Virus record (IMG/VR): IMGVR_UViG_2534682060_000015
Span: 1 to 28,894 of that record
Source of the DNA: a virus
Taxonomy: Duplodnaviria; Heunggongvirae; Uroviricota; Caudoviricetes
DNA length: 28,894 nt
Direction: 5' to 3' (one strand)
Shown: one piece after another, positions 1,369-15,653 of the stretch
Numbering within the stretch: the first letter of the stretch is position 1
How the letters are laid out: the number at the start of each line of letters is the position of its first letter
Notes under the pieces: generated by a model
Told to the model about the DNA's origin: nothing
The model's database searches: none
The model's input: only the letters and a program-made list of their open reading frames with translations
Program-made: the position numbers and the translations under genes

Positions 1369-1444
1369 GCCGATATAGCTCAGTTGGTAGAGCAGCGCAT
1401 TCGTAATGCGAAGGTCGTAGGTTCGACTCCTATTATCGGCACCA
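1369..1444 (+). tRNA. thrW: tRNA-Thr (anticodon CGU)
   Basis: 76-nt sequence GCCGATATAGCTCAGTTGGTAGAGCAGCGCATTCGTAATGCG...GGTTCGACTCCTATTATCGGCACCA with acceptor stem pairing, D-loop AGCTCAGTTGGTAGAGC, anticodon loop with CGT, T-loop GGTTCGACTCC and 3' CCA; its position after proA matches thrW. Confidence 0.88.
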
Positions 1445-1445
1445 T
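1428..1445. repeat. attL core: 18-bp TCCTATTATCGGCACCAT at the 3' end of tRNA-Thr, repeated exactly at 15636..15653
   Basis: Exact 18-bp identity between 1428..1445 and 15636..15653 found by eye; the flanking bases differ (c/t upstream, t/c downstream). Classic duplication of a tRNA 3' end by site-specific integration. Confidence 0.75.
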
Positions 1446-1461
1446 TCTAACGTTTCCCCAA

Positions 1462-1546
1462 GTCTACTAAAGTTCACTGAAACCCCTTATACTCTGCGCT
1501 TTACAGCCCCTTTTAGTATTTCTACGTCTACTAAAGTTCCCTGAAA
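1462..1546. repeat. two direct 21-bp repeats GTCTACTAAAGTTC(A/C)CTGAAA (1462..1482 and 1526..1546), candidate integrase arm-type sites
   Basis: Near-identical 21-mers 64 bp apart, between the att core and the integrase gene. Confidence 0.45.
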
Positions 1547-1610
1547 TCTACGGTCGTTTGGGGGTACTTATGGGGGTATTTGTTGTTCGGTCTATAGGAG
1601 GTACCCCCAA

Positions 1611-2825
1611 GTGAAACTAAACGCCCGCCAGGTGGACACCGTCAAACCTAAAGATAAGCCTTACAAGCTGGCTGATGGTGGTGGTTTGTATCTCTTGATT
1701 AAACCTAATGGCGGCAAATACTGGCGGCTCAAGTATCGTGTAGCAGGCAAAGAGAAGCTGTTAGCGCTTGGCGTGTATCCTGAAGTCACATTGGCCGATG
1801 CTCGGGCAAAACGTGAAGAAGCCAAAAGGGGGATCGCTGGGGGTATCGATCCTATGGAAGCGAAACGGGAAGAAAAGATTGCCCGTGAAACTCAGTTAAA
1901 CAATACATTCAAAGATATTGCCCTTGAGTGGCACAGCAGCAAACTAAAAAAATGGTCTGCTGGGTATGCTTCAGACATCCTGGAGGCTTTCAACAAAGAT
2001 GTGTTCCCTTACATTGGCAAAAAACCAATAGCTGATATCAAACCGCTTGAACTGTTGAATGTGCTACGGCGCATTGAGGGGCGCGGCGCTACAGAAAAGG
2101 CCAAAAAGGTTAGGCAGCGCTGCGGGGAAGTTTTCCGTTACGCAATAGTCACCGGCCGTGCTGAGTATAACCCTGCTCCGGATCTCACCAGTGCGATGCA
2201 AGGGCATGACTCCAATCATTATCCTTTCCTCACACCAAAGGAATTGCCTGATTTCTTCAAGGCTTTGTCAGGATATACAGGAAGCGCGTTAGTAGTTTTA
2301 GCCGCTCGTCTGCTGATTATAACCGGCTTGCGTACCGGCGAACTCCGCGGGGCATTTTGGGATGAAATCAATATCAATAAGGCGGTCTGGGAAATACCAG
2401 CCTCACGCATGAAAATGCGTCGCCCTCATATAGTGCCATTGTCTGAGCAGGCTCTTTCGCTTATTGGGCAGATTAAAGAACTAACTGGCAATTATCCGCT
2501 TATGTTTCCTGGTCGTAATGATCCAAGAAAAACAATGAGTGAGGCCAGCATAAACCAAGTATTTAAGCGCATTGGTTATAACGGAAAGGTTACTGGCCAC
2601 GGTTTCCGACACACTATGAGCACCATTTTGCATGAGCAGGGCTATAACACTGCGTGGATAGAAACGCAGCTCGCGCACGTCGATAAAAACTCAATTCGTG
2701 GCACATACAACCATGCGCAATATCTGGATGGGCGGCGGGAAATGCTTCAGTGGTACGCTGATTATATGGATTCGCTCGAGCATGGCGGAAATGTGGTGCA
2801 TTGTGAGTTCGGAAAATGCGGGTGA
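1611..2825 (+). CDS. int: P4-type tyrosine integrase (404 aa)
   Basis: GTG start at 1611 with AGGAGG at 1596..1601; N-terminus MKLNARQVDTVKPKDKPYKLADGGGLYLLIKPNGGKYWRLKYR is typical of the P4-integrase arm-binding domain; C-terminal catalytic region contains HGFRHT...LAH...Y; located directly downstream of a tRNA. Confidence 0.9.
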   Translation: MKLNARQVDTVKPKDKPYKLADGGGLYLLIKPNGGKYWRLKYRVAGKEKLLALGVYPEVTLADARAKREEAKRGIAGGIDPMEAKREEKIARETQLNNTFKDIALEWHSSKLKKWSAGYASDILEAFNKDVFPYIGKKPIADIKPLELLNVLRRIEGRGATEKAKKVRQRCGEVFRYAIVTGRAEYNPAPDLTSAMQGHDSNHYPFLTPKELPDFFKALSGYTGSALVVLAARLLIITGLRTGELRGAFWDEININKAVWEIPASRMKMRRPHIVPLSEQALSLIGQIKELTGNYPLMFPGRNDPRKTMSEASINQVFKRIGYNGKVTGHGFRHTMSTILHEQGYNTAWIETQLAHVDKNSIRGTYNHAQYLDGRREMLQWYADYMDSLEHGGNVVHCEFGKCG

Positions 2826-2952
2826 CTGGTTGAGTATACAGTAGTAGACTTTGAGCGATTAAGAAAAGGCTGTGTCTAGGGTCGCTCCCGAAAATCCGTA
2901 CACCTCGGCGGACTGGCACAGCCACTACGGTAGAGGGCGCAGAGGTGTGCGT

Positions 2953-3723
2953 ATGGTTGATATTCATGCCGAATTAAATGAATACAAAAAAGAGTTTATT
3001 TATTTACGTGATTTTCTTGATGATGTATTTAAAGTTGTTGATGCTAATATTTCAGAAGTCATTACCTGGATACTCAAGAGAATAAATACAGTAAATCCAG
3101 GCATTACCCTGTACACAGTAAATTCATTAAATGAGGTGGAGCTTTATTCTTCGGATCCGTTTGAGTGGAGATCTGATTTTAACTTTCTTTATGCAAAACT
3201 GGATACGGTTAGGGAGCGTGGTTGTTTACCTTGTGAGAGGGATGAGAGTGGTTTTCTGGTATCTGGTTATTGGGAAGATGCCGAATTTGAGGCAATGGGA
3301 TTCAGAAGAAATGAAATTTTCGAAATTTTCCCAGAAATCCTTGACGGGTTAATGAATCTGGAATGTGCTGACTCTTCTGAAAATAACGAGGCGCAAGGAA
3401 GCAATATTGAACATAAAGAGTTGCGTACAGATGATGATTTTTTATCCCGAATTGCAATGCTGGAAAAAGAAAATGAATCGTTAAGGGCGCGGGTAAATCA
3501 GTTAGAAAAGGAGCGCCCGATTTTGTTAAAGGCGTATCGTGATGATGACCCATTGTATCTGGCTATCGATATTAGAAACAGAGAGTGGGCCAATTACGAC
3601 CCAGAGAATGATCGCGCAACTAGGGGAAACCAGGGCGCGATTACTACTGAGCTTGAAAAACGAGGTTTTACCTCCCGACAGGCCGCATCTATTGAGCTTG
3701 TCGCCTGTCCTATCAAACGATGA
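2953..3723 (+). CDS. hypothetical protein with coiled-coil segment (LEKENESLRARVNQLEKER); AT-rich orphan gene next to integrase
   Basis: ORF 2872..3723 in the track; ATG at 2953 preferred (agagg a few nt upstream); AT-rich codon usage contrasts with proA and int. No recognisable family. Confidence 0.5.
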   Translation: MVDIHAELNEYKKEFIYLRDFLDDVFKVVDANISEVITWILKRINTVNPGITLYTVNSLNEVELYSSDPFEWRSDFNFLYAKLDTVRERGCLPCERDESGFLVSGYWEDAEFEAMGFRRNEIFEIFPEILDGLMNLECADSSENNEAQGSNIEHKELRTDDDFLSRIAMLEKENESLRARVNQLEKERPILLKAYRDDDPLYLAIDIRNREWANYDPENDRATRGNQGAITTELEKRGFTSRQAASIELVACPIKR

Positions 3724-3762
3724 AGCCTTACCCTAGTGGTATCTCATGTTTTGTTCGCGTCT

Positions 3763-3842
3763 CACCCTAAGGGTAATCAGACCTCACCCTTAGGGTATTT
3801 TTGTATGCTTTCCCATCAATTTTACTATTACCCTTAGGGTAA
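3763..3842. promoter_or_regulatory. three copies of the palindromic motif (C/T)ACCCT(A/T)AGGGTA (3763..3776, 3785..3797, 3829..3842) upstream of the AlpA-like gene
   Basis: CCCTAAGGG/CCCTTAGGG self-complementary cores repeated three times in the intergenic region 3724..3943; candidate operator or activator binding sites. Confidence 0.5.
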
Positions 3843-3943
3843 AAATATTCCCGATAACCATTAGACCTGAGAGCATTAAAATATTCGTTATTTCTGTGCC
3901 ATGATTACCTCGTCAAATTGAGTAGACGTTATGAGGTAAATAT

Positions 3944-4141
3944 ATGTCAAATACGCTTATTCGTTTAACGGAAGTTCAGCGTAGAACTGGATATAGCAAG
4001 GCATGGATTTATCGCCTTATGGGGCAAGGTAAATTTCCTGCATCAGTTAAAATTGGCTCGCGAGCGATTGCTTTCGTTGAGAGTGAAATTGACGAGTGGA
4101 TTAATCAGCGTATTGCGGAATCACGCGGAACAGCTACCTGA
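3944..4141 (+). CDS. AlpA-family HTH transcriptional regulator / excisionase-like protein (65 aa)
   Basis: MSNTLIRLTEVQRRTGYSKAWIYRLMGQGKFPASVKIGSRAIAFVESEIDEWI matches the AlpA/Vis-type pattern (RL.EV...G.S...IYRL...G.FP...K.G.R...W...EI..W); gagg upstream of the ATG. Confidence 0.8.
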   Translation: MSNTLIRLTEVQRRTGYSKAWIYRLMGQGKFPASVKIGSRAIAFVESEIDEWINQRIAESRGTAT

Positions 4142-4219
4142 TTAAATGGCTACGGGGCCAGAAGTCCCAGCTATCCACCAGCAAATAAAAAGTAACTTAA
4201 TTCGATAGCAGGAGTTTTT

Positions 4220-5020
4220 ATGAAACTGCGAAAAACGCCCGTACAGGGGCAGGGCTTCGTTCGGCCTGAAAACCAGAGCCAACAAAATTTCTGCGAAATT
4301 ATCCCGGTTAGTTCCGGCGTTATTGGCGGGCGTGAAACCAATATTGTTAGCGCCAGAGCGTTGCATAAGGTGCTGGGTGTGAAGCGTGATTTCACAACTT
4401 GGATTAAAGGACGCATTGATGAGTACGGATTTAAAAAGGGCGTGGATTTTGAATTCGTAGAAAATTTGACCTCCCCCAATCCGGTGAGCGCAAAATCTCG
4501 CCAACGTGTAGAGCACGACTACCTGAGCACTATCAACATGGCGAAAGAACTGGCGATGGTCGAGCGCACCGAACAGGGGCGCGCCGTTCGTCAGTACTTT
4601 ATCAAATGCGAGGAGGAGCTACACAAGGTAGCGCCAGTGCGTTCCGCAGTGTTACGCCGGGAACTGAAAGCCCGTATCACAGTTGCCAGCTACTTTAAGC
4701 CAATGTGTGCCGCGCTGGAGGCGTACCGGGCTGAGCTGGGTAAAAACACTCTACAGCACCACTACACCACGGAAGCCAATATGCTGGCGCGTATCGTGCT
4801 GGGTGGCATGACTGCAAAACAGTGGGCGCAGGCGAACGGCATCACAGGCGAACCACGCGACCACATGAGCACGTTGCAGCTTGAGCATCTTTCTTACCTT
4901 AAGCAGAGCAATATCACGCTGATTGAGTTAGGCCAGGACTACCACCAGCGGAAAGCTGAATTAATTCGTCTTTCGCAGCGTTGGTTAGCCCGTCGCATGG
5001 AGGAAAACAGCCATGTGTAA
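4220..5020 (+). CDS. phage antirepressor-like protein (AntA/AntB-type N-terminal domain)
   Basis: Segment SARALHKVLGVKRDFTTWIKGRIDEYGFKKGVDFEF resembles the AntA/AntB antirepressor N-terminal domain; ORF 266 aa. Confidence 0.55.
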   Translation: MKLRKTPVQGQGFVRPENQSQQNFCEIIPVSSGVIGGRETNIVSARALHKVLGVKRDFTTWIKGRIDEYGFKKGVDFEFVENLTSPNPVSAKSRQRVEHDYLSTINMAKELAMVERTEQGRAVRQYFIKCEEELHKVAPVRSAVLRRELKARITVASYFKPMCAALEAYRAELGKNTLQHHYTTEANMLARIVLGGMTAKQWAQANGITGEPRDHMSTLQLEHLSYLKQSNITLIELGQDYHQRKAELIRLSQRWLARRMEENSHV

Positions 5021-5440
5021 CGCTCTGACCGTTACAAAAAGAAAAAGCGCCCCGTTGCCGGAGCGCCTTTGTGAACAAGTCGCTTACTGCGCCATATTGC
5101 TTACTGTCTACGAGGCAGATTATAGCGTTGTGGTCGTACAGAGTGAAGGCGCTGATCACTGTTATCACAGTAAGCCAGAAATGCAGAATATTTTGCTGCA
5201 AAATGCCGTTAGCCACGCTGTCCGGAAAGCAAAAAATACTGCTGGTGGTGCGACTGATGCAATTTCTTCTGGTCGTTCAGTGCTGAATAATCTGACATTT
5301 GATGCCGTTCTGGAGAAAACTAAGGCGACCGCAAAGTGGCACCGGTGGGTATTACGACAAATCAAACTTGAACATATTGCCAACAGCGGTGTATTTGCGG
5401 TCGGTGGGAAAAGCGTAACCGGAAGAAAATTCCGGTGGGG

Positions 5441-5656
5441 CTATTCCTGCTCTTTAATATCGCTATGTCGCGATGTTTTCCAGGTATGTGGCCCTAATTT
5501 TGTGCGCCTGTACTCTTTAAGGAACGTCTCAAGGACAAACGCACACGGCGCGAATTTGTCTGATTCATGCTCGTGCGTCATATTTTTGCGACGTCTCTTT
5601 CGGGTTTGTGATGGTATTTTTGTTAACTTTTTATTGTTCATAATGGCCTCCTGCAT
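5441..5656 (-). CDS. small basic hypothetical protein (up to 71 aa; true start uncertain)
   Basis: Minus-strand ORF directly downstream of the RHH-like gene, same orientation; lysine/arginine-rich (KRRRK). Confidence 0.3.
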   Translation of the reverse strand: MQEAIMNNKKLTKIPSQTRKRRRKNMTHEHESDKFAPCAFVLETFLKEYRRTKLGPHTWKTSRHSDIKEQE

Positions 5657-5704
5657 AGCAATGCGCCGTAGTTCCTCACATCACGGCACTGATAGTGGTT
5701 ATTC

Positions 5705-5878
5705 CTACTCTTTGGCCTTGCGCAGCTGGCGGTATTCAACTTCTCGCTTTAATGCTGCTGTAACAAACTGCCCTGTACTTTCACCTGGCATTTTTACCGC
5801 CTCAACATTGTTCATTACTTCATGCGGAACTCTTGCCGCAACGGTTTGTGATTTCGCGTTTACTGCTTTTGTCGCCAT
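5705..5878 (-). CDS. small ribbon-helix-helix-like DNA-binding protein (57 aa), candidate switch regulator
   Basis: Hand-translated minus-strand ORF below the 60-aa track cutoff: MATKAVNAKSQTVAARVPHEVMNNVEAVKMPGESTGQFVTAALKREVEYRQLRKAKE; RVPHEV...G.S...FV..AL pattern fits an Arc/CopG-type fold; divergent from the + strand operon starting at 6078. Confidence 0.45.
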   Translation of the reverse strand: MATKAVNAKSQTVAARVPHEVMNNVEAVKMPGESTGQFVTAALKREVEYRQLRKAKE

Positions 5879-5928
5879 GTTGTGTACCCCTCATGAAAAA
5901 CAAATGCAGTATGCAGAAAAAAAAATAA

Positions 5929-5980
5929 GTGTTCAACACTTGACGTGTTTAACACCTGAAATTAGATTGGTGTTCAACAC
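5929..5980. promoter_or_regulatory. three near-palindromic operator-like sites GTGTT(C/T)AACAC (5929..5939, 5945..5955, 5970..5980) in a divergent intergenic region
   Basis: Three copies of an 11-bp near-palindrome between the minus-strand RHH-like gene (start 5878) and the + strand gene starting 6078. Confidence 0.55.
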
Positions 5981-6077
5981 CTTGTTGAAGCAAGGTGCAG
6001 AAACGACGAAACCCGGCAGTGCGTCAACACTAACCGGGCTTCTAACCACCAACGATAACGAGAGTATCGAGGTAGCT

Positions 6078-6614
6078 ATGAGAAATCATACCACACACCC
6101 GCAAGGGCGGGACTCGCACAACCTGAATAAACCCGATGTAAAAAACCTGTTGCTCGCCACTGCCAGCCAAGGCTATGATTTATACGCACCAGCAAAATCT
6201 GGTGCCGGGATTGGCGTCCTGGTATTTAACGAAGCGCACAACACGCGCCCTGCGTGTTTTTTTGTGCCGGATAGTCACACCTTATCAATGGTGGGCTGTA
6301 TGGGGGCGGAGCAATCCGCGCCGGGTTCTTCGTTAACCGGTTACGCCAACCCCGTACAGTCCACCGCCAGCGAAATTGGCGTTTCCTGCGGTGGGTTTAT
6401 TAACCCTAACGAAGAGGCTGCCAATATGGCTACAGTCCCTACCCTTGTACATTCCCAAACTGCCTTTATCTGGCGCTTTATCATCTTTGGCGCGTCAGAA
6501 TCCCAAATCATCCACGTCACCGCCTGGACGGAACGCGAAGCGCGTAACCATTGCCCGTCCGGTTGTGTCGCTGTATTCGCCGCCCGTATTCGTCAGGAGG
6601 TGCGCCATGATTAA
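6078..6614 (+). CDS. hypothetical protein (178 aa from ATG 6078; possibly shorter, from ATG 6426)
   Basis: C-terminal part of the 533-aa track ORF; ATG 6078 has GAGG at 6069..6072; only the region from about 6078 on reads like protein (...IWRFIIFGASESQIIHVTAWTEREARNH...). The upstream part of the track ORF looks like non-coding read-through. Confidence 0.4.
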   Translation: MRNHTTHPQGRDSHNLNKPDVKNLLLATASQGYDLYAPAKSGAGIGVLVFNEAHNTRPACFFVPDSHTLSMVGCMGAEQSAPGSSLTGYANPVQSTASEIGVSCGGFINPNEEAANMATVPTLVHSQTAFIWRFIIFGASESQIIHVTAWTEREARNHCPSGCVAVFAARIRQEVRHD

Positions 6615-6900
6615 TCTGTCAATCTCTGACCTTAACCGCATTCAGTATGACGAGAAATTTACCGGGAGCGTAAAAGCATTGAGGAAGCAGGCTGGATGTG
6701 CACGACTTATTAAGCCGTTAAGGTGTCATCATGATGATGATCCGCACTTTACCGGACGTATGGTGAATCACTACAAAAAAGGCGTTGAGGTATCCTCTGA
6801 ACAGCTACGAGCTGGTTGCTGTTTCGGCACACCACCGGAATTTAGCGAACTGCTGACCCGTTGCGATTACCGGATCATTCAGGGGGAAAGTCATGGGTAA
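6607..6900 (+). CDS. hypothetical protein (97 aa)
   Basis: ATG 6607 with AGGAGG at 6595..6600; overlaps the previous stop (ATGATTAA); MINLSISDLNRIQYDEKFTGSVKALRKQAG... Confidence 0.55.
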   Translation: MINLSISDLNRIQYDEKFTGSVKALRKQAGCARLIKPLRCHHDDDPHFTGRMVNHYKKGVEVSSEQLRAGCCFGTPPEFSELLTRCDYRIIQGESHG

Positions 6901-7093
6901 TCAGCCAGCAACAATGACAATTACCCTGAATGTGCCAGATGATTTCACCGGGCGCGTACTGGTTTACCTGGATAAAGGGAAAGTGAAATCACAATGCCGA
7001 CTGCGAAATAATGAAATAGTAAGTACGGTAGAAGGCTTTTCTGAACTCTGTATTCGTGCAGGAATAAAACCGGAACTGCTGACAGGAAAATAA
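6893..7093 (+). CDS. hypothetical protein (66 aa)
   Basis: ORF start overlaps the upstream stop; part of a tightly packed + strand operon. Confidence 0.45.
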   Translation: MGNQPATMTITLNVPDDFTGRVLVYLDKGKVKSQCRLRNNEIVSTVEGFSELCIRAGIKPELLTGK

Positions 7094-7097
7094 AACC

Positions 7098-7388
7098 ATG
7101 AAAAAGAAAAATTCTGGCTTTACTGCCAGCGGCCTCTCTCGGTCTGCAATTCGCTCTGGCGATATTTACCGCGACACCAGACGTGGGGGACGAGTGGTTA
7201 TTCGTCACGTTACGCCAGGAAATATCACCTACCGCCGTGAGGCTTACGAATATGACTGCGTAATGCCGCGCCGTCAGTTTGAGCGTGATTTTATTCTGGT
7301 GGAAAACAAAGAACAGGCAGTAGCGAGACGTGCAGCCTCGAGTATTAAAAAAATCCGGGCAATGTTGGTAGCTGGGGGTAAGAAGTGA
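7098..7388 (+). CDS. hypothetical protein (96 aa)
   Basis: ORF with stop overlapping the start of the large ATPase gene (7385). Confidence 0.5.
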   Translation: MKKKNSGFTASGLSRSAIRSGDIYRDTRRGGRVVIRHVTPGNITYRREAYEYDCVMPRRQFERDFILVENKEQAVARRAASSIKKIRAMLVAGGKK

Positions 7389-9517
7389 AAAACGCGCCGA
7401 ATTTAAAATATCAGCCGAAGGATAAATTCACTGAGGCAATCATTTTTGCCGGGATGGATGCTTACGCTCACGCTCAACACTGGATTGAAAGCGAAGGACG
7501 GAAATATGGCGATAGCGTGCCGCCTGTTTACCTGGGGCCAAAGCAACTGGCAGATCTGGCTAATATCCGCATTGTCGACGATGAACGTCGTTTTGCGCGC
7601 GTCTATCTCGCGGGGGAGATCGAACCAATCCAGATTAATGCTATCGCTGAAAGGCTGGCGCTGGCTGGCGTAAAGGATGCGAAATTATACAAAGGTATCC
7701 CTGACCAGGATCCGGAGAACTGGCGCGACTACCTGCAACGGATCCGTGAACAGGCAGAGCGCGGGGAAACCCTGACTGAAGGAATCGGAATAGCTGGTGG
7801 CTCACCCGGTAAAACAGGCCCCATGAAACCGCATATTACCGAAAAAGACGGGGCGCTCTGGTATATCGAGCCAATCCCCAACACCAGGGCAGAGGAGATG
7901 AATTATAAAGAAACCTGGCTGAGTGACCGGATGCGCACGGCAGGTATTGGTAATGACGGAAGGGAGGCGTATCTGATTATTGAAATGATCCCGGAAGGGA
8001 CACAAAAAATTATTTACGAAGCGATGCCGCGCAATGAAATCGGTATGCCCGCAGGATGGGCGCGATTACGTGGGCGGGGAGTTGCAATCACTACCAGCGC
8101 CCATTTATTGAACAAACTGGCGGAATACCTGCAACGTCATGGAGATCGCACGGTGTGGGAGGTCACATCAACAGCAGGTTGGCATTGTGGAGCCTATGTT
8201 ATGCCTGATGGCGAGGTGATTGGTGTGCCTGATCGTCCCGTAGCATTCTGCGGCGGATCTGCCGCCATCAAAGGCTATATTGTCAGGGGCACGGTGCATG
8301 AATGGCGAAATAATGTTGCTTCTCTGATGCGTGGCAATCACTCAATGATGCTTGGGGTGCTGGTCGGGCTGGCAGCCCCGCTAAATTCCCTTGTGGGGGG
8401 TAGTTGTTTTGGTATTCATCTTTTCGCGCAGTCGTCAGCGGGGAAAACCACGACTGTGGAGGCCGCCACCAGCCTTTATGGCGACCCTGAAATGCTTAAA
8501 CTCTCGTGGGATGCCACCCGGCACGGGTTGACAGTGGAAGCAGCTGCACGTAATGACGGTTTTATCCCTATTGATGAAATTGGTCAGGGAGGAAGGGTTA
8601 ATGACATTGCGCAATCCGCCTACAGCCTGTTTAACGGTGTGGGCAGGATTCAGGGGCGCAAGGACGGCGGCAATCGTGCGGTAATGCGCTGGAAAATAGC
8701 GGCACTAAGCACCGGAGAAGAAGATTTTGAAACCTTCCTGTTAAAAGGGGGAATTGCCCCAAAGGCAGGGCAACTGGTGCGACTGCTAAGCATTCCCTTT
8801 ACCGATACAACGGTGTTTAACGGTTATGACGATGGTGATCAACATGCCAGGGCCATAAAGCGACTTTCATCAAATTATTGTGGCGCTGCGGGACGTGAGT
8901 GGGTGCGCTGGTTATCCGCTCACAAGGAGTTGGCTATCAACACCACTTCAGATAAAGAAAATGCCTGGCTGGGAAATCTGCCTGAAAATGCCTCGTCACA
9001 GGTAAGGCGAGTGGCATCGCGATTCGCCATGCTGGATGCAGCCGGAGAGCTTGCTACCGCAATTACTGGCTGGACAGCTGAAGAATGCCGGGAAGCAACG
9101 CAACGGGCTTTTGATGACTGGCTACAGGATTTCGGGCTGGAAAACCGGGAAAAATATCAGGTCATCAGTCGCGCCCGTGACTTTATTCAGCGCCATGCCC
9201 TGAGTCGTTTTCAGCCTTATACCTACGGGAAAAGCAATGGGGATATGGATAACCACTATGCATCCCGTATAAGCAATCTTGCAGGCTATCTTGTCAGCGG
9301 TAAGCGTGAGGATGGAAAACCCGAATATCACATTATCCCGTCAGTGTTTGATAGCGAAATTTTATGCGGTATATCCAGGAACTTTGGGTGTCAGGCGCTG
9401 GAAGAAGCCGGAATGCTGGTTTGTGCAGAACCTGGTCGCTGGACATCGAAAACAGTGAAGATTAACGGAACACAGCAGCGATTTATCGTGCTGATTGATC
9501 AGGCAGAAGACGAATAG
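7385..9517 (+). CDS. large replication protein, P-loop NTPase (primase/helicase-like, 710 aa)
   Basis: Walker A AQSSAGKTT and Walker B IPIDEIG in the central region; size and position (after regulators, before an iteron field) match the replication proteins of P4-like/PICI-type satellites. Could belong to the DUF927-type family, but that is not verified. Confidence 0.6.
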   Translation: MKNAPNLKYQPKDKFTEAIIFAGMDAYAHAQHWIESEGRKYGDSVPPVYLGPKQLADLANIRIVDDERRFARVYLAGEIEPIQINAIAERLALAGVKDAKLYKGIPDQDPENWRDYLQRIREQAERGETLTEGIGIAGGSPGKTGPMKPHITEKDGALWYIEPIPNTRAEEMNYKETWLSDRMRTAGIGNDGREAYLIIEMIPEGTQKIIYEAMPRNEIGMPAGWARLRGRGVAITTSAHLLNKLAEYLQRHGDRTVWEVTSTAGWHCGAYVMPDGEVIGVPDRPVAFCGGSAAIKGYIVRGTVHEWRNNVASLMRGNHSMMLGVLVGLAAPLNSLVGGSCFGIHLFAQSSAGKTTTVEAATSLYGDPEMLKLSWDATRHGLTVEAAARNDGFIPIDEIGQGGRVNDIAQSAYSLFNGVGRIQGRKDGGNRAVMRWKIAALSTGEEDFETFLLKGGIAPKAGQLVRLLSIPFTDTTVFNGYDDGDQHARAIKRLSSNYCGAAGREWVRWLSAHKELAINTTSDKENAWLGNLPENASSQVRRVASRFAMLDAAGELATAITGWTAEECREATQRAFDDWLQDFGLENREKYQVISRARDFIQRHALSRFQPYTYGKSNGDMDNHYASRISNLAGYLVSGKREDGKPEYHIIPSVFDSEILCGISRNFGCQALEEAGMLVCAEPGRWTSKTVKINGTQQRFIVLIDQAEDE

Positions 9518-9549
9518 CACAACCTACGCTCGCAGAGGGTCAAAAATCG

Positions 9550-9822
9550 CGGGATATGCGGGATATCGGGATATGAAAAATATATTGCAGAAATATCAGT
9601 TATTTATGTGTTGTTGTCGTATCCCGCTGTATCCCGCCGTATCCCGGTATTTAGGTTTACGAGTGGTTGTAAAACAAACAAAATAACCGTATCCCGGAAT
9701 GTATCCCGCAATATCTTATTGATGCATAAGCAAAAAAAAACTTACCGGGATATGGCGGGATATGAAAAATCACATAACACCATGAAATAAATAAGTTTTT
9801 TTGTTCATATCCCGATATCCCG
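9550..9822. repeat. iteron field: at least 13 copies of GGGATAT / ATATCCC in both orientations, putative origin of replication
   Basis: Direct GGGATAT repeats at 9551..9575 and 9747..9763; inverted ATCCCG copies at 9621, 9631, 9641 (exact 10-bp spacing), 9691, 9703, 9809, 9817; the 13-mer GGGATATGAAAAA occurs twice; interspersed A/T runs. Confidence 0.6.
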
Positions 9823-9974
9823 GTAAAAAATGTTTTTTTACGCCTTATAGAGTACAGAAAAAAGATTGTTCAAATTTTGTATTACGATTGACTACTGTCA
9901 GCCATCCCACCCGGAAAAGGCATAAAAGCTGACAGGTAACTGACAATGAGACAGTTTTATTTTTACGTGCCGAT

Positions 9975-10532
9975 ATGACGGCAACAATGATGGGGCAGAG
10001 CATGACAAAACTGACCATTAACAGAAAACCGAAAGGTATTTACGGCACGCCGCAGAAAACGACGCAGGCGGCACAGAAGCAGGATAAAACCACATCGGCA
10101 CATAAAGTGATGCCCGGTAACCAGAAAGCGCAGCAGAAGCCCACAGGGGCGACACCGTGGCGGCATATGACCAAACGCCAGCGCAAAAACCGCAGGCGCG
10201 TTAACCGCCTCACTGAGTTGTGGCCTGACTTATTCTGCAGGGAAGCACCGAAGCCACTTAAGGTGGGGATATTCAATGACCTGGTGCAGGATATCGCCGT
10301 CAGGGAGCTGGCATTCGGTCCAGGGGCATTACGTGCGTCACTGGCATCTTATGCGCAGTCACCGCGCTATTACCGAGCCCTGGTTGCTGGTGGGGTGCGC
10401 TATGACCTGAAAGGCCAGCCGTGCGGCGAGGTGACACCACAGAAACAGAACGAGGCAGAAATGCGGCTGATGGCGCTGAATGAGAAGCGCAAACGTCAGC
10501 GCCGGGCAGCAAAGGAGAAAACAGGCGCATGA
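9975..10532 (+). CDS. ProQ/FinO-domain RNA-binding protein with basic N-terminal extension
   Basis: LTELWPDLFCREAPKPLKVGIFNDLVQDIAV...LRASLASYAQSPRYYRALVAGGVRYDLKGQPCGEVTPQ aligns by eye with the E. coli ProQ N-terminal domain (FLAERFPHCF...RPLKIGIFQDLV...[35 protein letters not shown]). Start codon uncertain (ATGs at 9975, 9987, 10002). Confidence 0.7.
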   Translation: MTATMMGQSMTKLTINRKPKGIYGTPQKTTQAAQKQDKTTSAHKVMPGNQKAQQKPTGATPWRHMTKRQRKNRRRVNRLTELWPDLFCREAPKPLKVGIFNDLVQDIAVRELAFGPGALRASLASYAQSPRYYRALVAGGVRYDLKGQPCGEVTPQKQNEAEMRLMALNEKRKRQRRAAKEKTGA

Positions 10533-10816
10533 TTCACGACAGCAAAGCGGAAGCACTGGAAGCGCGTGGTCTGGACCGGAGAGCGGCGGAAAGATGGGCA
10601 GAAGTCATAATGCGAGTGGATGGTGATAAGGCTCGGGAGGAGGCGGCAAAACGTCGCGCGGAATGTATCCGCAAGGCAGCCCGCCCACCAGCAAAGCTGG
10701 ATAATTTCGAAGAGATGCGCGAAACCATCAGCCAGGCACATGCTGGTATGGGATTACATCAGCCCAATGGTAAGGCATTCAGGAAATACCCCGGGGCAAA
10801 AAATTACAATCCATGA
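10529..10816 (+). CDS. hypothetical protein (95 aa), start overlapping the FinO-like stop
   Basis: ATGA overlap at 10529..10532; charged, Ala/Arg-rich; no family recognised. Confidence 0.4.
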   Translation: MIHDSKAEALEARGLDRRAAERWAEVIMRVDGDKAREEAAKRRAECIRKAARPPAKLDNFEEMRETISQAHAGMGLHQPNGKAFRKYPGAKNYNP

Positions 10817-10820
10817 GAGA

Positions 10821-10846
10821 GGCCGGGATTTTACCCGGCTTTTTTG
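10821..10846 (+). terminator. rho-independent terminator
   Basis: GCCGGG (10822..10827), loop ATTTTA, CCCGGC (10834..10839), followed by TTTTTTGT. Confidence 0.7.
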
Positions 10847-11017
10847 TGTCAGCAAAAAAGCCCACAGACAGCAGTGTTGCGGGGGGTGTTTTCAGGTGGT
10901 TGAAGTCATTGGGAAGAACGTGAACATTACGCGCAAATGTTTCACAAATTGCAATAAAATGGATTGTTATTTCAGTTTATGCAATCATGAGCATTGCTTT
11001 GATCAGGAGAGATGATT

Positions 11018-11185
11018 ATGAGAAAAGCCAGCGTAAAACCCGTTTTACTCGCTCGTGAGCAGATTGAAGCATTACAGCGCATCCAGGACGAAGAGCGTCA
11101 AAAATCTGTGCTTGGTGTGGCCCCGTCGATTCATGTTATTGCCAGGCAACTGATGGACAAGGCACTTAAAGAGGTGAAACTGTGA
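11018..11185 (+). CDS. small hypothetical protein (55 aa)
   Basis: Hand-found ORF MRKASVKPVLLAREQIEALQRIQDEERQKSVLGVAPSIHVIARQLMDKALKEVKL with AGGAGA at 11005..11010; stop overlaps the GTG start of the next ORF. Confidence 0.45.
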   Translation: MRKASVKPVLLAREQIEALQRIQDEERQKSVLGVAPSIHVIARQLMDKALKEVKL

Positions 11186-11454
11186 AATTAAATATCAGAG
11201 TGGATAAACGCCAGCTATGGCAGAAAAAAGAGAACAGTGAGGCATTCAGGGATTTGCTGGTGGAAAATCTTCAGCACCGTTTCAGTGGAGAGCTGCCAGA
11301 CGCGCTGGGGAAAAAACTGGAATCTCTGACGGTGGAAATTGGCGATTATGGTTTTGTTGATGTTGAAAGCACGACTGCCAACACAGAAATCGTAAAACAG
11401 GTCGTCAACGATGTAATGAAAACCACGCTTAGCCAGCCATCCTGGCGTAACTGA
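11182..11454 (+). CDS. hypothetical protein (90 aa)
   Basis: Track ORF, translationally coupled to the upstream small ORF. Confidence 0.45.
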   Translation: MKLNIRVDKRQLWQKKENSEAFRDLLVENLQHRFSGELPDALGKKLESLTVEIGDYGFVDVESTTANTEIVKQVVNDVMKTTLSQPSWRN

Positions 11455-11553
11455 ATCCGCAAGGGGCGGTGATTGCCCCTCTCCGCCATACCCACAACGA
11501 ATTCCTTTTTCGCATGAAGTGAATGTTTATCGTATATGCATGAGGTGAGCCAC

Positions 11554-12078
11554 ATGTTGATGAGTAAAGCCGAATACGCCAAATACAAAGGTGTAAGCCG
11601 CCAGACAGTTTACGACTGGATCGAGAAAGGCGAGGTGGTCATGTCGGGTAAAAAAATTGATATGGAGGCTACAGAGTGGCGAAACAGCCCATCATCACAG
11701 GGAAAAGACACTGTTTCTGAAATGTGGCCTGAGAGAACGCTGGAAATGACGTGGGGCGAGTTCTGGAAAGCTGTCAGGGACAGAGACGGTAAAATTCCTG
11801 CGCCAGTAACGGACGATGACATAAAGCAGCGTGTGCAGGATGCAGCCGGGGAATTAGGCTGGGAAGCACACTTTCTTGATGATGGTGCTATCTGCCTTGA
11901 GGATGATGAAGGACAGCATTACTTTGAACAATACAATTTGCGGGGTAATGCCAGGCTGGCAATTCGTATGCTGCGCTGTGAACTCTGCTATGTTGCAGGT
12001 GATTATCCTGATGAACTTGAATCATGGAGCGAGGCAGGACTAAACGCCCTGGCTGAATGGGAGAAAACAGGTCATTAA
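11554..12078 (+). CDS. HTH DNA-binding protein, Nu1/TerS-like N-terminus (candidate packaging-redirection or site-recognition protein)
   Basis: SKAEYAKYKGVSRQTVYDWIEKGEVV resembles the winged-HTH N-terminus of lambda-type small terminase Nu1 (from memory); ATG 11554 with GAGGTGA at 11542..11548; track ORF begins at 11536. Confidence 0.45.
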   Translation: MLMSKAEYAKYKGVSRQTVYDWIEKGEVVMSGKKIDMEATEWRNSPSSQGKDTVSEMWPERTLEMTWGEFWKAVRDRDGKIPAPVTDDDIKQRVQDAAGELGWEAHFLDDGAICLEDDEGQHYFEQYNLRGNARLAIRMLRCELCYVAGDYPDELESWSEAGLNALAEWEKTGH

Positions 12079-12086
12079 CGGCCGCA

Positions 12087-12414
12087 AAAAGTGTCAAGTT
12101 GAGCAGCTTGCAAGGTTGACACTTTACACTCTGAACACGAAAAAGTGTCAACCTCGCTGTAAGCCCCGCCATTACTGGTCTTGCGCCATGTTTGCCACAT
12201 CAAAAGGCCGAAAAAATCGCGAAAAGTGTCAAGTTGCCATGCTTAGAAATGCTAAGTTTTGTTAAGGTTTTTCGCGGAAAAGTGTCAACTCAACCTAACG
12301 GATCTTAACGCTCACGCACAACAGCTGCAGCCAACGTGTAAAGGACTGATGCGAAGCAGGGCAGCTGTCAGCCTGTTATGGTTTGTTATGCCTTACCTGG
12401 GGAAAGTGTCAACC
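12087..12414. repeat. array of six copies of (C)GC(G)AAAAGTGTCAA(G/C) immediately downstream of the HTH gene
   Basis: Copies at 12087..12098 (+), 12116..12124 (inverted), 12141..12153, 12222..12233, 12277..12289 and 12402..12414; the extended 16-mer is conserved in three copies. Confidence 0.6.
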
Positions 12415-12621
12415 GCTACCGTTTCAGAAAGCTTCAATTGCAGAGCGTTGGCAGCACCTGTCAAAACTTGTCACCCGCCGGCACAGCCAGCGGGAATTTT
12501 TTGCTCTAAACGCTCTAAGTTACAGTTGATGTGATCTGTAAACTGCGGTTGCAACTAGTAATCGTATAAAACCATCAGTTGCAGTTTTACCTAACTATAA
12601 TCACAATGATAGTTTATATAA

Positions 12622-14121
12622 TTATACATTGTATGCGAGGTAATCATATAATGCTAAAAGTTTCCGATAATCAGTATGAGATTTGTCCTTAAACTCCCGG
12701 ACATGTTTTTCTAAATCTTCTAAGGGTATATGTTCATCATGAGCATTGAAGAAAATAATATTTTGTAATTTGCTATAACTATCAGAATGTTTAGCGTAAA
12801 TATCTTCAATGGTATGTTCTACTATTCTTTGATTCTTGGGTAACCTTGAATAGTTTAGATTTATTAATCTTTTTTGATTTTTCATTAATGATGTTAAGCA
12901 TTTAACACCTGGGCTGAATTTATGAAAAGCATAAGCTGGGAAATATGATCTTTTATTGATGGTGAACTTGTCAAGCAACTCGACAACATGTGATTCCTTA
13001 TTTGAAATTAGATCAAAATAGTTTTCCATCATCTCCTGAGGTGTTTGCATGTATATTTTTATAGAGTTAACAGAACCGACGGCTAGAACAAGCTCATCAT
13101 TTCTGAGTGTCTCCAAATCCCCAACAAGTTTTACTTTTATGTCTCCACCTTCCTTTATTTTACCAAAGATACTCTCTACTCTGCGTATATCCATTACCGA
13201 AACTGGTAAGTGGAGTTGAGCAAGTTCTTTATATATATCTGAGAAGTTATCTGTAACGATTTTATTAATGCTAATTAACCCTGCATCTTCTACTTCGAGA
13301 TCGTGAGAGACAATGTTTAAATTATCAATACCTTCTTCTCTTTCAATAAGAAGGAAGTTGTTTTTTATTTTTTCTGCAATTTTAGAACGAGGTGGTATGT
13401 ATGAGAATATTGTTTTTAATACTTTTTTTATATTCGGATCACCTATTCTATATCCCATAAATATAATCGGATTATGTATAAACAAGGATAGGAGTTGAGC
13501 ACGAATTAATTCATATTTTTTATCAAAATGAATATAGTCATCACTGGTTATTATTATGGATTCTGGTTTGCTAACGCATCCGTGAATTTTATAAACAGAA
13601 CCATAAGGATTGCTTAAAAGTATATCATTTCCAATAACAGGATTATAACCAATTGCACTTTCGATAAAATTATCATAGTTTGTCGTAATCACAGAGGCAA
13701 TGTTTTTTGAGGCCTTTACTAATTCAGATATTTCATCTTGAACTCCTAATTTTAAATCTGTGATATTAACCACCTGTGAAAGATAGATTTTAAATCTGCT
13801 GATATTTGAGGATATATCTTCCGACTCGTAGTATAAGTCATTGATATATTTGAACTTTCCATTCCTGTCTGCTTTTAGTGTTGCATCAAAAATTTGCTCT
13901 AATTGCGTTGCTACTTTTGGAAGGTCTACAATACCATCTTTATTGCTGTTTTCTCTGACAAGATCTTTATAGAGTTCATTAGAATTTGTCAGGTCAATAC
14001 TAATTTTCTCTAAGAGTGCCGGCCAGCTATAAGAAATTGATAAGTATCTCATGCTGAAACCTGCTCCAACAAATAATATTGGGTGGTTTCTGTAGCCTTT
14101 TAGAAAATCCGTTATATTCAT
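12622..14121 (-). CDS. SIR2-domain protein (499 aa): N-terminal SIR2-like NAD+ hydrolase domain plus unassigned ~300-aa C-terminal domain; candidate defence effector
   Basis: Rossmann motif PILFVGAGFS (aa 14-23), TTNYDNF (aa 146-152) and YKIHG (aa 178-181), the residue pattern of defence-associated SIR2 domains (ThsA/DSR-type Asn and His); GGAGG four nt upstream of the ATG (rc of 14122..14130); strongly AT-rich. Confidence 0.7.
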   Translation of the reverse strand: MNITDFLKGYRNHPILFVGAGFSMRYLSISYSWPALLEKISIDLTNSNELYKDLVRENSNKDGIVDLPKVATQLEQIFDATLKADRNGKFKYINDLYYESEDISSNISRFKIYLSQVVNITDLKLGVQDEISELVKASKNIASVITTNYDNFIESAIGYNPVIGNDILLSNPYGSVYKIHGCVSKPESIIITSDDYIHFDKKYELIRAQLLSLFIHNPIIFMGYRIGDPNIKKVLKTIFSYIPPRSKIAEKIKNNFLLIEREEGIDNLNIVSHDLEVEDAGLISINKIVTDNFSDIYKELAQLHLPVSVMDIRRVESIFGKIKEGGDIKVKLVGDLETLRNDELVLAVGSVNSIKIYMQTPQEMMENYFDLISNKESHVVELLDKFTINKRSYFPAYAFHKFSPGVKCLTSLMKNQKRLINLNYSRLPKNQRIVEHTIEDIYAKHSDSYSKLQNIIFFNAHDEHIPLEDLEKHVREFKDKSHTDYRKLLALYDYLAYNV

Positions 14122-14212
14122 TTGACCTCCGAGATATATTAGCGGTAATCATTAAAATTTGTAAGAACACAGCTCAAGTATGTATTTAGCTGTAGAGATA
14201 AGAATTTACTTG

Positions 14213-15340
14213 TTATTGACCATTTGGATAGTAAATTTTCATAAGCCTCTCTTTTTCTTTGTTGAATTCTTTATCAAAATCAAATTTTTTGTCTAAATTA
14301 GAATGTAAGTCATTTAACGCTTTAACAAGAACCCAAGCGCTGTGGTGGATGAATGGGTTTAATCCAATAATGTTTCCTGCAGAATTATCGTCAACTTTCT
14401 CAACTGCTAAAATCGCTTGGATTTTTTTACAGCTTTCCTGAATATTCCAATCTGAAACATGTAGTAATAATGCAGATAAAGCCATGAGTGGGTTGTTTGC
14501 TTTAATAGATGTAGGGGTGTAACTAATAATCATACGGAGTCGAGGGTGGTAGTCTCGAATCAGTCTCGCCATTCGAGTAGCTATCTCATATTTTTCGTTG
14601 AGAATTGATCTGTCAAATGTTGACGTCCCAGAGTCTTTAATTAATATAGTTCTTGCTTTTTTGACTACTGATTTAAGTCTTACATTCCAAAGCTCAGGAT
14701 TCTCATGACGGTCTAGATAGAATTGAGGATGCTTGAAATAAAGAGATTGATATACTTCCTCGTTGATATCGAACCAACTTTTGTTTATGGCGCTGAGATC
14801 GACAACATAATTATCATTGTTTCTCTTATATCTAATCAATGAGGCCTTTGCAAGGTAGATTATGTGAGGGCTTAAATTAAATGTAAAAGTGCCTTTTTCT
14901 CTTAAATCTAAGAACCATTGGCGCATGTTACGTATATCTTCTTGCGTAAAAATCTTCTCCTGAATTCCCGCACAGACCATAAGACCTATTAAGCGTGTCG
15001 CTTCAGAACCCGAGCGCATAAAATCAATTTGGCCTTCATTTGAAACAACGTTCAACTTATCATCGCCAGTATAAAAATCACAAAATGGGAGGTGAGAGTC
15101 TTTACCTAGATTGTCTCGAAATGCAAAGTGTGCTTGCTTTACAACTTTGCCGTTACTGAGAGATCTTCCTTCCGAAACGTAATAACCACCAGAAACATTG
15201 CATGCCGGGCATTCAACATCCTCTTTAACAAAATCTCTAAAACTTAGAGAAGGATCTGAGTTGCTACGTTCGAAAAGGTTTTCCAACTGCTTAGCATCCA
15301 GCTCACGCTTAAATTTTCTAGAATAGGCCGTTATCGTCAT
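14213..15340 (-). CDS. hypothetical protein (375 aa from ATG 15340; track ORF extends to TTG 15406), upstream partner of the SIR2 gene
   Basis: ATG at 15340 has AAGGAG 6 nt upstream (rc of 15347..15352); no Walker A, TIR or other motif recognised by eye; contains CPAC and PFCDFY cysteine motifs; ~90-bp gap to the SIR2 gene, same strand. Confidence 0.6.
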   Translation of the reverse strand: MTITAYSRKFKRELDAKQLENLFERSNSDPSLSFRDFVKEDVECPACNVSGGYYVSEGRSLSNGKVVKQAHFAFRDNLGKDSHLPFCDFYTGDDKLNVVSNEGQIDFMRSGSEATRLIGLMVCAGIQEKIFTQEDIRNMRQWFLDLREKGTFTFNLSPHIIYLAKASLIRYKRNNDNYVVDLSAINKSWFDINEEVYQSLYFKHPQFYLDRHENPELWNVRLKSVVKKARTILIKDSGTSTFDRSILNEKYEIATRMARLIRDYHPRLRMIISYTPTSIKANNPLMALSALLLHVSDWNIQESCKKIQAILAVEKVDDNSAGNIIGLNPFIHHSAWVLVKALNDLHSNLDKKFDFDKEFNKEKERLMKIYYPNGQ

Positions 15341-15365
15341 TTCGGTCTCCTTTCGAAGGGAGCTT

Positions 15366-15393
15366 AACTTTATCATAGGATGATCATAAAGGG
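15366..15393 (-). promoter_or_regulatory. imperfect palindrome CTTTATCATAGGATGATCATAAAG just upstream of the cassette RBS
   Basis: Arms CTTTATCA / TCATAAAG with one mismatch; holds two TATGAT hexamers on the minus strand; 14 nt upstream of the AAGGAG RBS. Confidence 0.35.
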
Positions 15394-15635
15394 AGCTGTA
15401 CGGCAAACATCACTAAGGTTGGGCCTGAAACACAAATTCCCTAAGTGCAATTTTGACGTCTAACTTACTTGATGTGCTTCAAGGCGGTTCTTACATTGTG
15501 GTATCAACAACAATAGAATGTTTTTTAAACAATTTAGATAGCAACAAGCAAGTCTGGGGGTACTTTTGGGGGTATCTAATGATTGCGTAATAGTTTTTTT
15601 ATATACATATCAATGTGTTGATTTCTACAATTTGT

Positions 15636-15653
15636 TCCTATTATCGGCACCAT
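15636..15653. repeat. attR core: second copy of TCCTATTATCGGCACCAT
   Basis: Exact 18-bp copy of tRNA-Thr 3' end (1428..1445); the 21-bp motif GGGGGTACTT(A/T)TGGGGGTAT lies inside the island near both cores (1560..1580 and 15556..15576). Confidence 0.75.

Follow-up and report, generated by a model that had tools for sequence, protein, structure and literature searches.

Bacteria have three major classes of RNA chaperone, one of which is the FinO-domain proteins. To our knowledge, the only enterobacterial members with known clients are ProQ, FinO, FopA and PcnR. A further member of the class is encoded in the stretch of DNA analysed here, IMG/VR record IMGVR_UViG_2534682060_000015 (28,894 nucleotides, hereafter called the window), in which a 14.2-kb satellite of the phage-inducible chromosomal island (PICI) type, integrated at thrW, carries a gene for a FinO-domain protein between its replication origin and a perC-family gene. 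The existence of this gene and its annotation are already public, and its presence is unsurprising; what appears to be new, from the comparison of sequences, is a satellite-specific lineage of FinO architecture that is coupled to PerC. We consider it probable that the gene encodes a full-length FinO-type RNA chaperone and that, with the overlapping perC-like gene, it makes up an exchangeable accessory module at the end of the PICI replication operon. The coordinates of the features discussed are collected in Table 1.

In the RNA-bound structure of RocC, the N-cap motif grips the hairpin backbone and residues Gly52, Tyr87 and Arg97 contact the RNA 3' end (PMC9674577), and extensions to the core of FinO-family proteins supply duplexing activity, strand-exchange activity and specificity (PMC9977716). 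FopA (pCol1B9) and PcnR (IncI2) are small FinO-domain proteins of mobile elements, with basic N-terminal regions, that control replication via the antisense RNA Inc (PMC7491321, PMC9977716). Compared by description only, they resemble the island gene in that it also adjoins a replication module, and differ from it in that no Inc-like antisense RNA was found in the window by Rfam searches; the N-terminal domain of FopA is moreover described as different from that of FinO (PMC7491321), whereas that of the island protein is common with FinO's. FinO-family genes have also been annotated inside satellites, namely the Enterobacter cloacae PICI AVS0889 and Vibrio episomal cf-PISP elements (PMC13612085, PMC13230959), which are known by annotation only; the E. 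cloacae collection that includes AVS0889 also has PICIs with perC (PMC13612085). The literature on FinO-like genes of PICIs and islands was found to hold annotation-level mentions (PMC13612085, PMC13230959, PMC6174562) and no functional study.

The initial annotation, made from the letters alone, had read an open reading frame (ORF) at 9975-10532 (+ strand, 185 aa) as a ProQ/FinO-domain RNA chaperone, and the assignment of the domain is borne out. The ORF is real, its translation holds the three segments that had been quoted (PLKVGIFNDLV, LRASLASYAQSPRYY and RYDLKGQPCGE), and a profile search gives a match to the ProQ/FinO family of Pfam (PF04352) that covers positions 5-108 of the 109 in the profile and, at 85.5 bits (gathering cut-off 27; E=3e-24), is far above chance. 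Judged from alignment, the functional start is almost certainly the ATG at 10002 (176 aa) and not the first codon of the maximal ORF at 9975: all 20 homologues aligned (53-88% identity) start with MT[KT]LTINRKPKG at this codon, and the RefSeq entry WP_000164227.1, annotated as 'ProQ/FINO family protein', is likewise a protein of 176 aa that begins at 10002. Searches with phmmer match the ProQ N-terminal domain (E=9e-13) and FinO (1e-9), as well as NMB1681 and RocC, and the core of the protein is nearest in sequence to the N-terminal domain of E. coli ProQ (40% identity over 88 aa), then to FinO (33% over 106 aa). The cut-offs of the corresponding NCBIfam profiles are not reached, the FinO profile (NF010317, aligned over aa 39-181) scoring 62.8 bits against a family cut-off of 136 and the ProQ profile (NF003434) 61.9 bits against an equivalog cut-off of 127. 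On these scores the protein falls outside the FinO and ProQ equivalog families, and it appears to represent a distinct FinO-family lineage with plasmid-FinO architecture. The median ratio of nonsynonymous to synonymous substitution rates (dN/dS) is 0.25 over 53 pairwise comparisons, linker included, which argues for purifying selection on a functional, selected gene.

The lysine- and arginine-rich N-terminal extension that had been pointed out is also real (19 K+R against 2 D+E in residues 1-72, isoelectric point 12), and it is more than a low-complexity tract. Its first 13 residues are a conserved motif that recurs at the N-terminus of F-plasmid FinO (L-T-x-[KN]-R-K), for which a translation from pE94-2 was used as the reference; distant and intermediate relatives start MTEQKRPTLTIKRKPK, against MTEQKRPVLTLKRKTEG in FinO. 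Residues 14-50 are a linker, variable among homologues, with a predicted local distance difference test score (pLDDT) below 50 in an AlphaFold2 (AF2) model, and residues 58-73 are a basic helix according to DSSP on the same model. From its N terminus onward the protein thus has a FinO-type motif, a linker that is basic and disordered, a helix that is also basic, the FinO core and a last helix at the C terminus. FinO of F-like plasmids (1DVO, NF010317) has this same build, from an N-terminal (MTEQKRP)xL[TS][IL][KN]RK through a disordered basic stretch and a long basic helix to the core and the helix at its C terminus, and it matches the model with a root-mean-square deviation of 1.9 A over 102 columns (Foldseek E=2.8e-6). 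It is likewise borne by mobile elements; the differences are that the island gene is chromosomal, in a satellite and not at the end of a tra operon, that identity is 27% overall and 33% in the core, and that no FinP/traJ pair was found with the island gene.

ProQ of E. coli and Salmonella (5NB9, NF003434) is the best match in sequence, and equivalents of its residues R58, R69, Y70, R80 and D82 are present in the island protein, K54 and R62 not being conserved. The linker and the C-terminal Tudor-like domain of ProQ were not found in the island protein, to which BLASTP aligns ProQ residues 17-103 only, and the FinO-type N-terminal extension is lacking in ProQ; ProQ is also a core chromosomal gene, whereas the island gene is accessory and mobile. 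The likeness to ProQ that had been proposed thus stands for the FinO domain and falls for the protein as a whole, whose architecture is that of plasmid FinO.

The alignment-based AF2 model was retained in place of a poor single-sequence model (pLDDT 52); it has a pLDDT above 90 over about aa 55-165, with residues 1-45 disordered. The top 26 matches of a Foldseek search of the PDB are all RocC, FinO, NMB1681 or Legionella ProQ (E 3e-6 to 1.5e-4, probability 1.0), the best being RocC 7RGT/7RGU, FinO 1DVO, NMB1681 3MW6 and Legionella ProQ 6S10, and the alpha-helical FinO fold is accordingly the one that the model predicts. In the core, the best structural matches are RocC (Legionella, 7RGU) and the minimal ProQ NMB1681 (Neisseria, 3MW6), with template-modelling scores of 0.6-0.83 on target length. 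They differ from the island protein in identity (25-28%) and in their extensions, RocC having a long C-terminal one and NMB1681 almost none, and they are chromosomal regulators, not satellite genes.

Contact residues were mapped by alignment to the RocC-RNA structure described in PMC9674577. The residues of the RocC 3'-nucleotide pocket, Gly52, Tyr87 and Arg97, correspond to G89, Y123 and R133 in the island protein, and the N-cap Arg75 to R111; the N-cap and pocket arginines of FinO, R121 and R165 (PMC9674577), are the equivalents of R111 and R133. Among the 20 aligned homologues G89 is invariant and Y123 and R133 are nearly so, R111 being replaced in four. The pocket for the 3'-terminal nucleotide of an RNA is intact in this alignment. 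The N-cap reads G106-P107-G108-A109-L110-R111 against a canonical S-[KH]-x-x-L-R (GPGALR against SHKKLR in FinO), with G106 in place of the serine, P107 in place of the lysine and A109 in place of a second lysine; the arginine and the helix start are kept, and glycine and proline could in principle still begin a helix.

The diversity of the locus was sampled from IMG/VR and E. coli genomes (a scan of genome contigs gave two loci only). Homologues are present in 1158 of the 5426 complete E. coli genomes (21%), at 1587 loci and with up to 8 copies per genome, and all 1587 copies are chromosomal and annotated as 'ProQ/FINO family protein'. No close copy was found in phage collections, where matches have at most 42% identity and cover the core only, nor in the plasmids of PLSDB, where true plasmid matches reach at most about 43% identity and are again restricted to the core. 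Higher 'plasmid' matches were rejected, since they came from a 4.8-Mb chromosome-sized record and from poorly annotated or fragmentary records with split alignments.

The position that had been described for the gene, between the replication module with its origin and packaging-like genes, recurs in more than 80 related islands. The order in these loci is icd, DUF4222, replicase (DUF927, D5_N or other), iterons, an optional pair of orf85 and the gene of a single-stranded DNA-binding protein (SSB), FinO with PerC, and a terminator. FinO occupies the same slot alongside a DUF927, a D5_N or another replicase, whether SSB is there or not, in PICIs of the classical and of the capsid-forming kind (in one of the latter it precedes the capsid genes), and the slot is kept in relatives of only 37-45% identity; in a metagenomic relative whose protein is about 45% identical, the order primase, SSB, FinO, PerC is kept. 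One IMG/VR satellite (L089) carries two tandem, divergent FinO-domain genes after SSB, at 6539-7207 and 7339-7668, whose products are 37% and 45% identical to the query.

FinO and PerC adjoin in most of the related loci, their order being reversed in one clade. In the window the start codon of perC and the stop codon of FinO share the sequence ATGA (10529-10532), a sign that the two genes may be translationally coupled. Where PerC is not 3' of FinO, another small ORF overlaps the FinO stop, either one of 82 aa (10036-10284 in L039, a capsid-forming PICI) or one of 138 aa (9479-9895 in L004 and characteristic of its type), both without family assignment. Translational coupling of FinO to a downstream small protein seems to be general. 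Since the iteron sequence changes with the type of replicase, and since the iterons often reach the FinO ribosome-binding site, the segment made of this ribosome-binding site, FinO, PerC and the terminator appears to recombine as a unit. The prototype PICI EcCICFT073 has a primase-orf85-SSB block that is 87% identical in nucleotides to that of the FinO-bearing locus L008, followed by a perC allele and no FinO, and the two elements diverge exactly at the perC/FinO segment after SSB; EcCIMP1, which also lies at thrW, is without the FinO gene too. EcCICFT073 and EcCIMP1 are experimentally inducible and transferable (PMC6092414, PMC11773190). Being absent from at least two working PICIs, the FinO gene is therefore an accessory module and not a core satellite function.

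The gene layout suggests that, once the island is derepressed, transcripts of the upstream operon run on across the origin into FinO, which would be made together with PerC at the end of the replication operon. RNA clamping is to be expected because of the homology and the conserved contact residues: by analogy with the described chaperones, the protein would hold one or a few RNAs at the base of their terminator hairpin, with the 3' end of the U-tail buried, and so protect them, and its basic N-terminal helix and disordered tail may speed pairing with complementary RNA (duplexing, strand exchange) and narrow its specificity. The client is probably not encoded in the adjoining intergenic DNA. 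Because the gene is dispensable in related working satellites and no partner travels with it, the protein would act in trans; its likely targets are a few regulatory RNAs with terminators, whether from the island, the helper prophage or the host, the IsrK class being the best current lead. It would then tune the satellite cycle or the interaction with host or helper and would not be required for the cycle.

Several points weigh against a FinO-type chaperone that acts in this manner. The N-cap departs from S-K-x-x-L-R, and the RocC equivalent of the lost lysine matters about 12-fold. In some Citrobacter-type alleles (P0088, P0093 and P0111) both R111 and R122 are changed to cysteine (ALCA..., RRPCY), with Y123 and R133 kept, and this paired change could alter or abolish hairpin binding. 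The FinO-bearing loci L004, L008, L039 and L082 are without an IsrK or C4 match even at E<0.05, and the FinO-less EcCIMP1 has matches to both. The tight linkage to the replication module and SSB could mean a role in replication. Finally, the literature was found to contain no functional study and no report of RNA binding or clients for this protein or its close relatives.

Just ahead of the icd-like ORF and the replication genes, an IsrK-like and a C4-like RNA stand in tandem and make up a leader for RNA immunity in the style of P1/P4, here within a PICI. A hairpin of 6-7 bp with a U7 tail, of the kind bound by FinO domains (PMC9674577), closes the IsrK-like RNA, and IsrK is listed among the ProQ-associated small RNAs (sRNAs) of Salmonella (PMC5391140); by analogy, the two RNAs may be taken as candidate clients, more attractive ones than the flanks of the gene. 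It has been considered, as an unlikely explanation, that they are the dedicated clients and that the protein sets the read-through into the icd-replicase operon, in P1/P4-style RNA immunity. Both RNAs have full Rfam scores and lie just upstream of the icd and replication genes, and the distal place of FinO in the same operon would make feedback possible, but the co-occurrence that such a dedication would imply fails in both directions in the loci named above, and an obligate link of IsrK/C4 with FinO was rejected on this ground (Rfam on 13 loci). No obligate cis-encoded partner RNA was identified, and Rfam gave no match to FinP or to an antisense family beyond C4 in the window.

A different function, that of a replication accessory factor which acts at the origin with SSB and the primase-helicase (for example on primer RNA, R-loops or origin transcripts) and is not a regulator of expression, is judged quite unlikely. 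It would account for the place of the gene, which always follows closely on the replicase and origin, very often with an island SSB gene as its immediate upstream neighbour, even at 37-45% identity, and a transcript that carries FinO must cross the iteron inverted repeats. However, EcCICFT073 has the primase-orf85-SSB block without FinO and yet replicates (PMC6092414), the same allele family is found beside unrelated replicases and iterons, and FinO-domain proteins are described as RNA 3'-end binders, RNA stabilisers and promoters of pairing (PMC9674577, PMC9977716).

It had also been suggested that a small or antisense RNA encoded in the flanking intergenic DNA (9518-9974 or 10817-11017) works with the protein to control satellite replication. 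Plasmid FinO, FopA and PcnR do have cis-antisense RNA partners, and in two of the three cases the target is a replication initiator mRNA (PMC9977716, PMC7491321), and the bidirectional terminator-like hairpin T2 could in principle end a minus-strand transcript. The upstream flank, however, consists of the iteron origin and a non-conserved spacer, and nothing in it travels with the gene: in other islands the origin DNA is swapped wholesale with the replicase, and the iterons touch the ribosome-binding site. An sRNA was rejected there, the Rfam signals being sub-threshold, miRNA-like noise and the fold z-scores -1.1 to -1.6. The downstream flank is conserved across loci (94% column identity) and holds T1, T2 and a TTGCAAT region; the same arrangement, with an equivalent of T2, follows perC in the FinO-less EcCICFT073, so that it is not specific to FinO, and with no promoter-like site and a z-score of about 0 an sRNA or antisense RNA specific to FinO was rejected there as well. 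In the two flanks together, no Rfam match was obtained, no promoter-like sites above chance were found on either strand, and fold stability showed no excess over shuffled sequences apart from the terminator (z -1.6 to +0.3). No suppression of synonymous sites that would point to an embedded RNA was seen inside the FinO gene. A flank-encoded partner is very unlikely on this evidence, and the proposal of RNA-based control of satellite replication is weakened at the same time, the functional PICIs EcCICFT073 and EcCIMP1 being without the gene. Minus-strand 'terminators' inside the gene (10210 and 10114) and elsewhere were rejected as well, 8 being counted against 6.9 by shuffling, with no synonymous suppression.

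Little credence is given to an action on competitors or on the host, in which the protein would inhibit the fertility of F-like plasmids by taking the place of FinO on FinP/traJ, or would vie with host ProQ for ligands, and would form regulatory cargo with PerC and not a life-cycle gene. Such a role would be in keeping with the full FinO architecture and its N-terminal motif, with a core 40% identical to the E. coli ProQ domain, with the accessory distribution and with the pairing with PerC, a family that alters host virulence-gene expression (PMC11773190); it is opposed by an identity of only 27-33% to F FinO, by the high selectivity of FinO-family proteins (PMC9977716) and by the absence of a FinP-like RNA in the window. 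A decaying or functionless passenger gene is extremely improbable, for although some alleles are truncated or frameshifted (e.g. P0113, and partial matches in E. coli genomes) and some lose conserved arginines, dN/dS is low with the linker included, key residues are invariant, synteny is kept over deep divergence and the gene is carried by 21% of complete E. coli genomes.

The predicted FinO-type chaperone encoded by this module belongs to a lineage that is satellite-specific, has the full FinO architecture, is found in about one fifth of complete E. coli genomes, keeps a fixed slot and is usually coupled to PerC. Its clients, if found, would tell whether it is themselves, their helper phages or the host that satellites subject to control at the RNA level, and would provide a natural test case for how FinO domains in one cytoplasm keep their ligand sets apart. 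A tentative and rather doubtful extension is that the satellite chaperone, co-translated with PerC, is a weapon or tuning device in the conflict between satellite, helper and host. Its targets after induction would be immunity or antisense RNAs that carry a terminator, either of the IsrK/C4 class or FinP-like ones as in plasmids, and that belong to the helper prophage or to co-resident elements. Capture of such RNAs, if true, would change helper induction, its timing or the transfer of competitors; the protein would then stand for a fourth lineage of FinO-domain proteins in E. coli with a function of its own, and no RNA chaperone would have been shown to act in satellites before it.

Table 1. 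Position and supporting evidence of the features of the island (coordinates are those of the window).
Feature	Position	Strand	Basis
PICI-type island, 14.2 kb at thrW	1428..15653	.	18-bp direct repeats, tRNA, integrase, AlpA, replicase/origin, cargo
AlpA	3944-4141		Pfam PF05930 E=2e-19
IsrK-like sRNA, ending in an intrinsic terminator	6186-6262	+	Rfam RF01394, 80 bits
C4-like antisense RNA	6284-6371	+	Rfam RF01695, 76 bits
DUF927 primase-helicase-type replicase	7385..9517	+	Pfam PF06048 E=2e-40; RefSeq annotation
Replication-origin iterons, TATCCCG/CGGGATA x12 around AT-rich DNA	9550..9822	both orientations	repeat count
GGGG Shine-Dalgarno-like run, 6-9 nt before ATG 10002	9992..9995	+	sole upstream sequence kept across all gene contexts
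Predicted FinO-type RNA chaperone gene, 176 aa	10002..10532	+	Pfam, homologue-fixed start, AF2, Foldseek, dN/dS
perC-family gene	10529..10816	+	Pfam PF06069 E=2e-29
Intrinsic terminator T1, GCCGGG-ATTTTA-CCCGGC + U-run	10822..10847	+	hairpin/U-run scan
Hairpin T2, flanked by A-run/T-run, bidirectional terminator-like, degenerate in the window	10854..10893	.	hairpin scan

The window is E. coli chromosome, with proA and the tRNA-Thr gene (thrW, 1369-1444) followed by the island. The 18-bp direct repeats TCCTATTATCGGCACCAT, at 1428-1445 and 15636-15653, are the 3' end of tRNA-Thr and its copy. The marks of a PICI are present (integrase, AlpA, a primase-helicase with an adjoining iteron origin, a size of about 10-15 kb and att repeats at a tRNA), and a full set of phage structural or lysis genes is absent from the island gene list. 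Excision, replication and packaging that depend on a helper phage were shown for the relatives EcCICFT073 and EcCIMP1 only (PMC6092414, PMC11773190). Its left end consists of a P4-type integrase, an int-alpA RNA motif, AlpA, an AntA antirepressor, an ash pseudogene region and a divergent control region; its middle of the IsrK-like and C4-like RNAs, icd-like, DUF4222, the DUF927 replicase, the iteron origin, FinO, perC and the terminator; its right part of three small genes, the last with a weak TerS-like helix-turn-helix (HTH), and then of a SIR2-type defence cargo. This gene order is the organisation of enterobacterial PICIs.

In the replication module, the DUF4222 gene (7098-7388) overlaps the 5' end of the replicase gene, and the iteron field that had been reported is real: TATCCCG occurs 12 times in it and 15 times in the whole window, for which 2.2 are expected. 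T1 (-11.4 kcal/mol in the hairpin/U-run scan; fold z=-2.2) is conserved in related loci and is predicted to end the rep-FinO-perC transcription unit. Further downstream, ahead of the packaging-like operon of small genes, stands a repeated motif, TTGCAAT / TGCAATCAT, at 10940-11000 in the window and at about 10330-10420 in a related locus (L095). The motif is kept in EcCICFT073 and in several variants of the intergenic DNA, a sigma-70 consensus promoter was not found in this region, and an island activator, for instance PerC or AlpA, may use the motif as its operator.

The int-alpA RNA motif (Rfam RF02996, 45.8 bits, 2869-2936, + strand) lies directly 3' of the integrase gene and recurs in L004, where the integrase is of the same family; it was rejected as a FinO-linked element, as it follows the type of integrase and not FinO. 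A palindrome GTGTT[GA]AACAC occurs three times at 5929-5980 (0.02 expected), between a leftward 57-aa ORF and the rightward ash/IsrK/C4/icd operon, in a region that is widely conserved among related islands (73-95% in nucleotides) and looks like the operator and divergent promoter region of the island. Two small ORFs lie beside it (5705-5878 and 5441-5656, both on the - strand); the leftward 57-aa ORF has by eye the look of a ribbon-helix-helix repressor, with no Pfam match. A minus-strand hairpin at 5918-5957 was rejected as an antisense terminator, being the three GTGTTRAACAC palindromes themselves. A 533-aa ORF (5013-6614, + strand) is spurious: it spans the ash pseudogene, the two leader RNAs and the icd-like gene, and its match to the Icd-like family is confined to the last 44 residues or so.

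To the right of T2, a search of the PDB for a solved homologue of orf180 (11536-12078), such as a packaging-redirection protein, gave no match, and its N-terminus has a weak TerS-like or excisionase-like HTH only. FinO and PerC have no PADLOC match and were rejected as members of a defence system. The SIR2 cargo occupies the island's right end, in convergent orientation to the island operon, and comprises a SIR2-domain protein (12622-14121, - strand) that matches the PADLOC candidate PDC-S25 (E=2e-139) and also ThsA-like STALD models, and a 397-aa partner (14213-15406, - strand) with a faint DUF7516 match only. Directly right of the island are a second integrase and the start of a lambdoid-type prophage, so that two elements lie in tandem at thrW.

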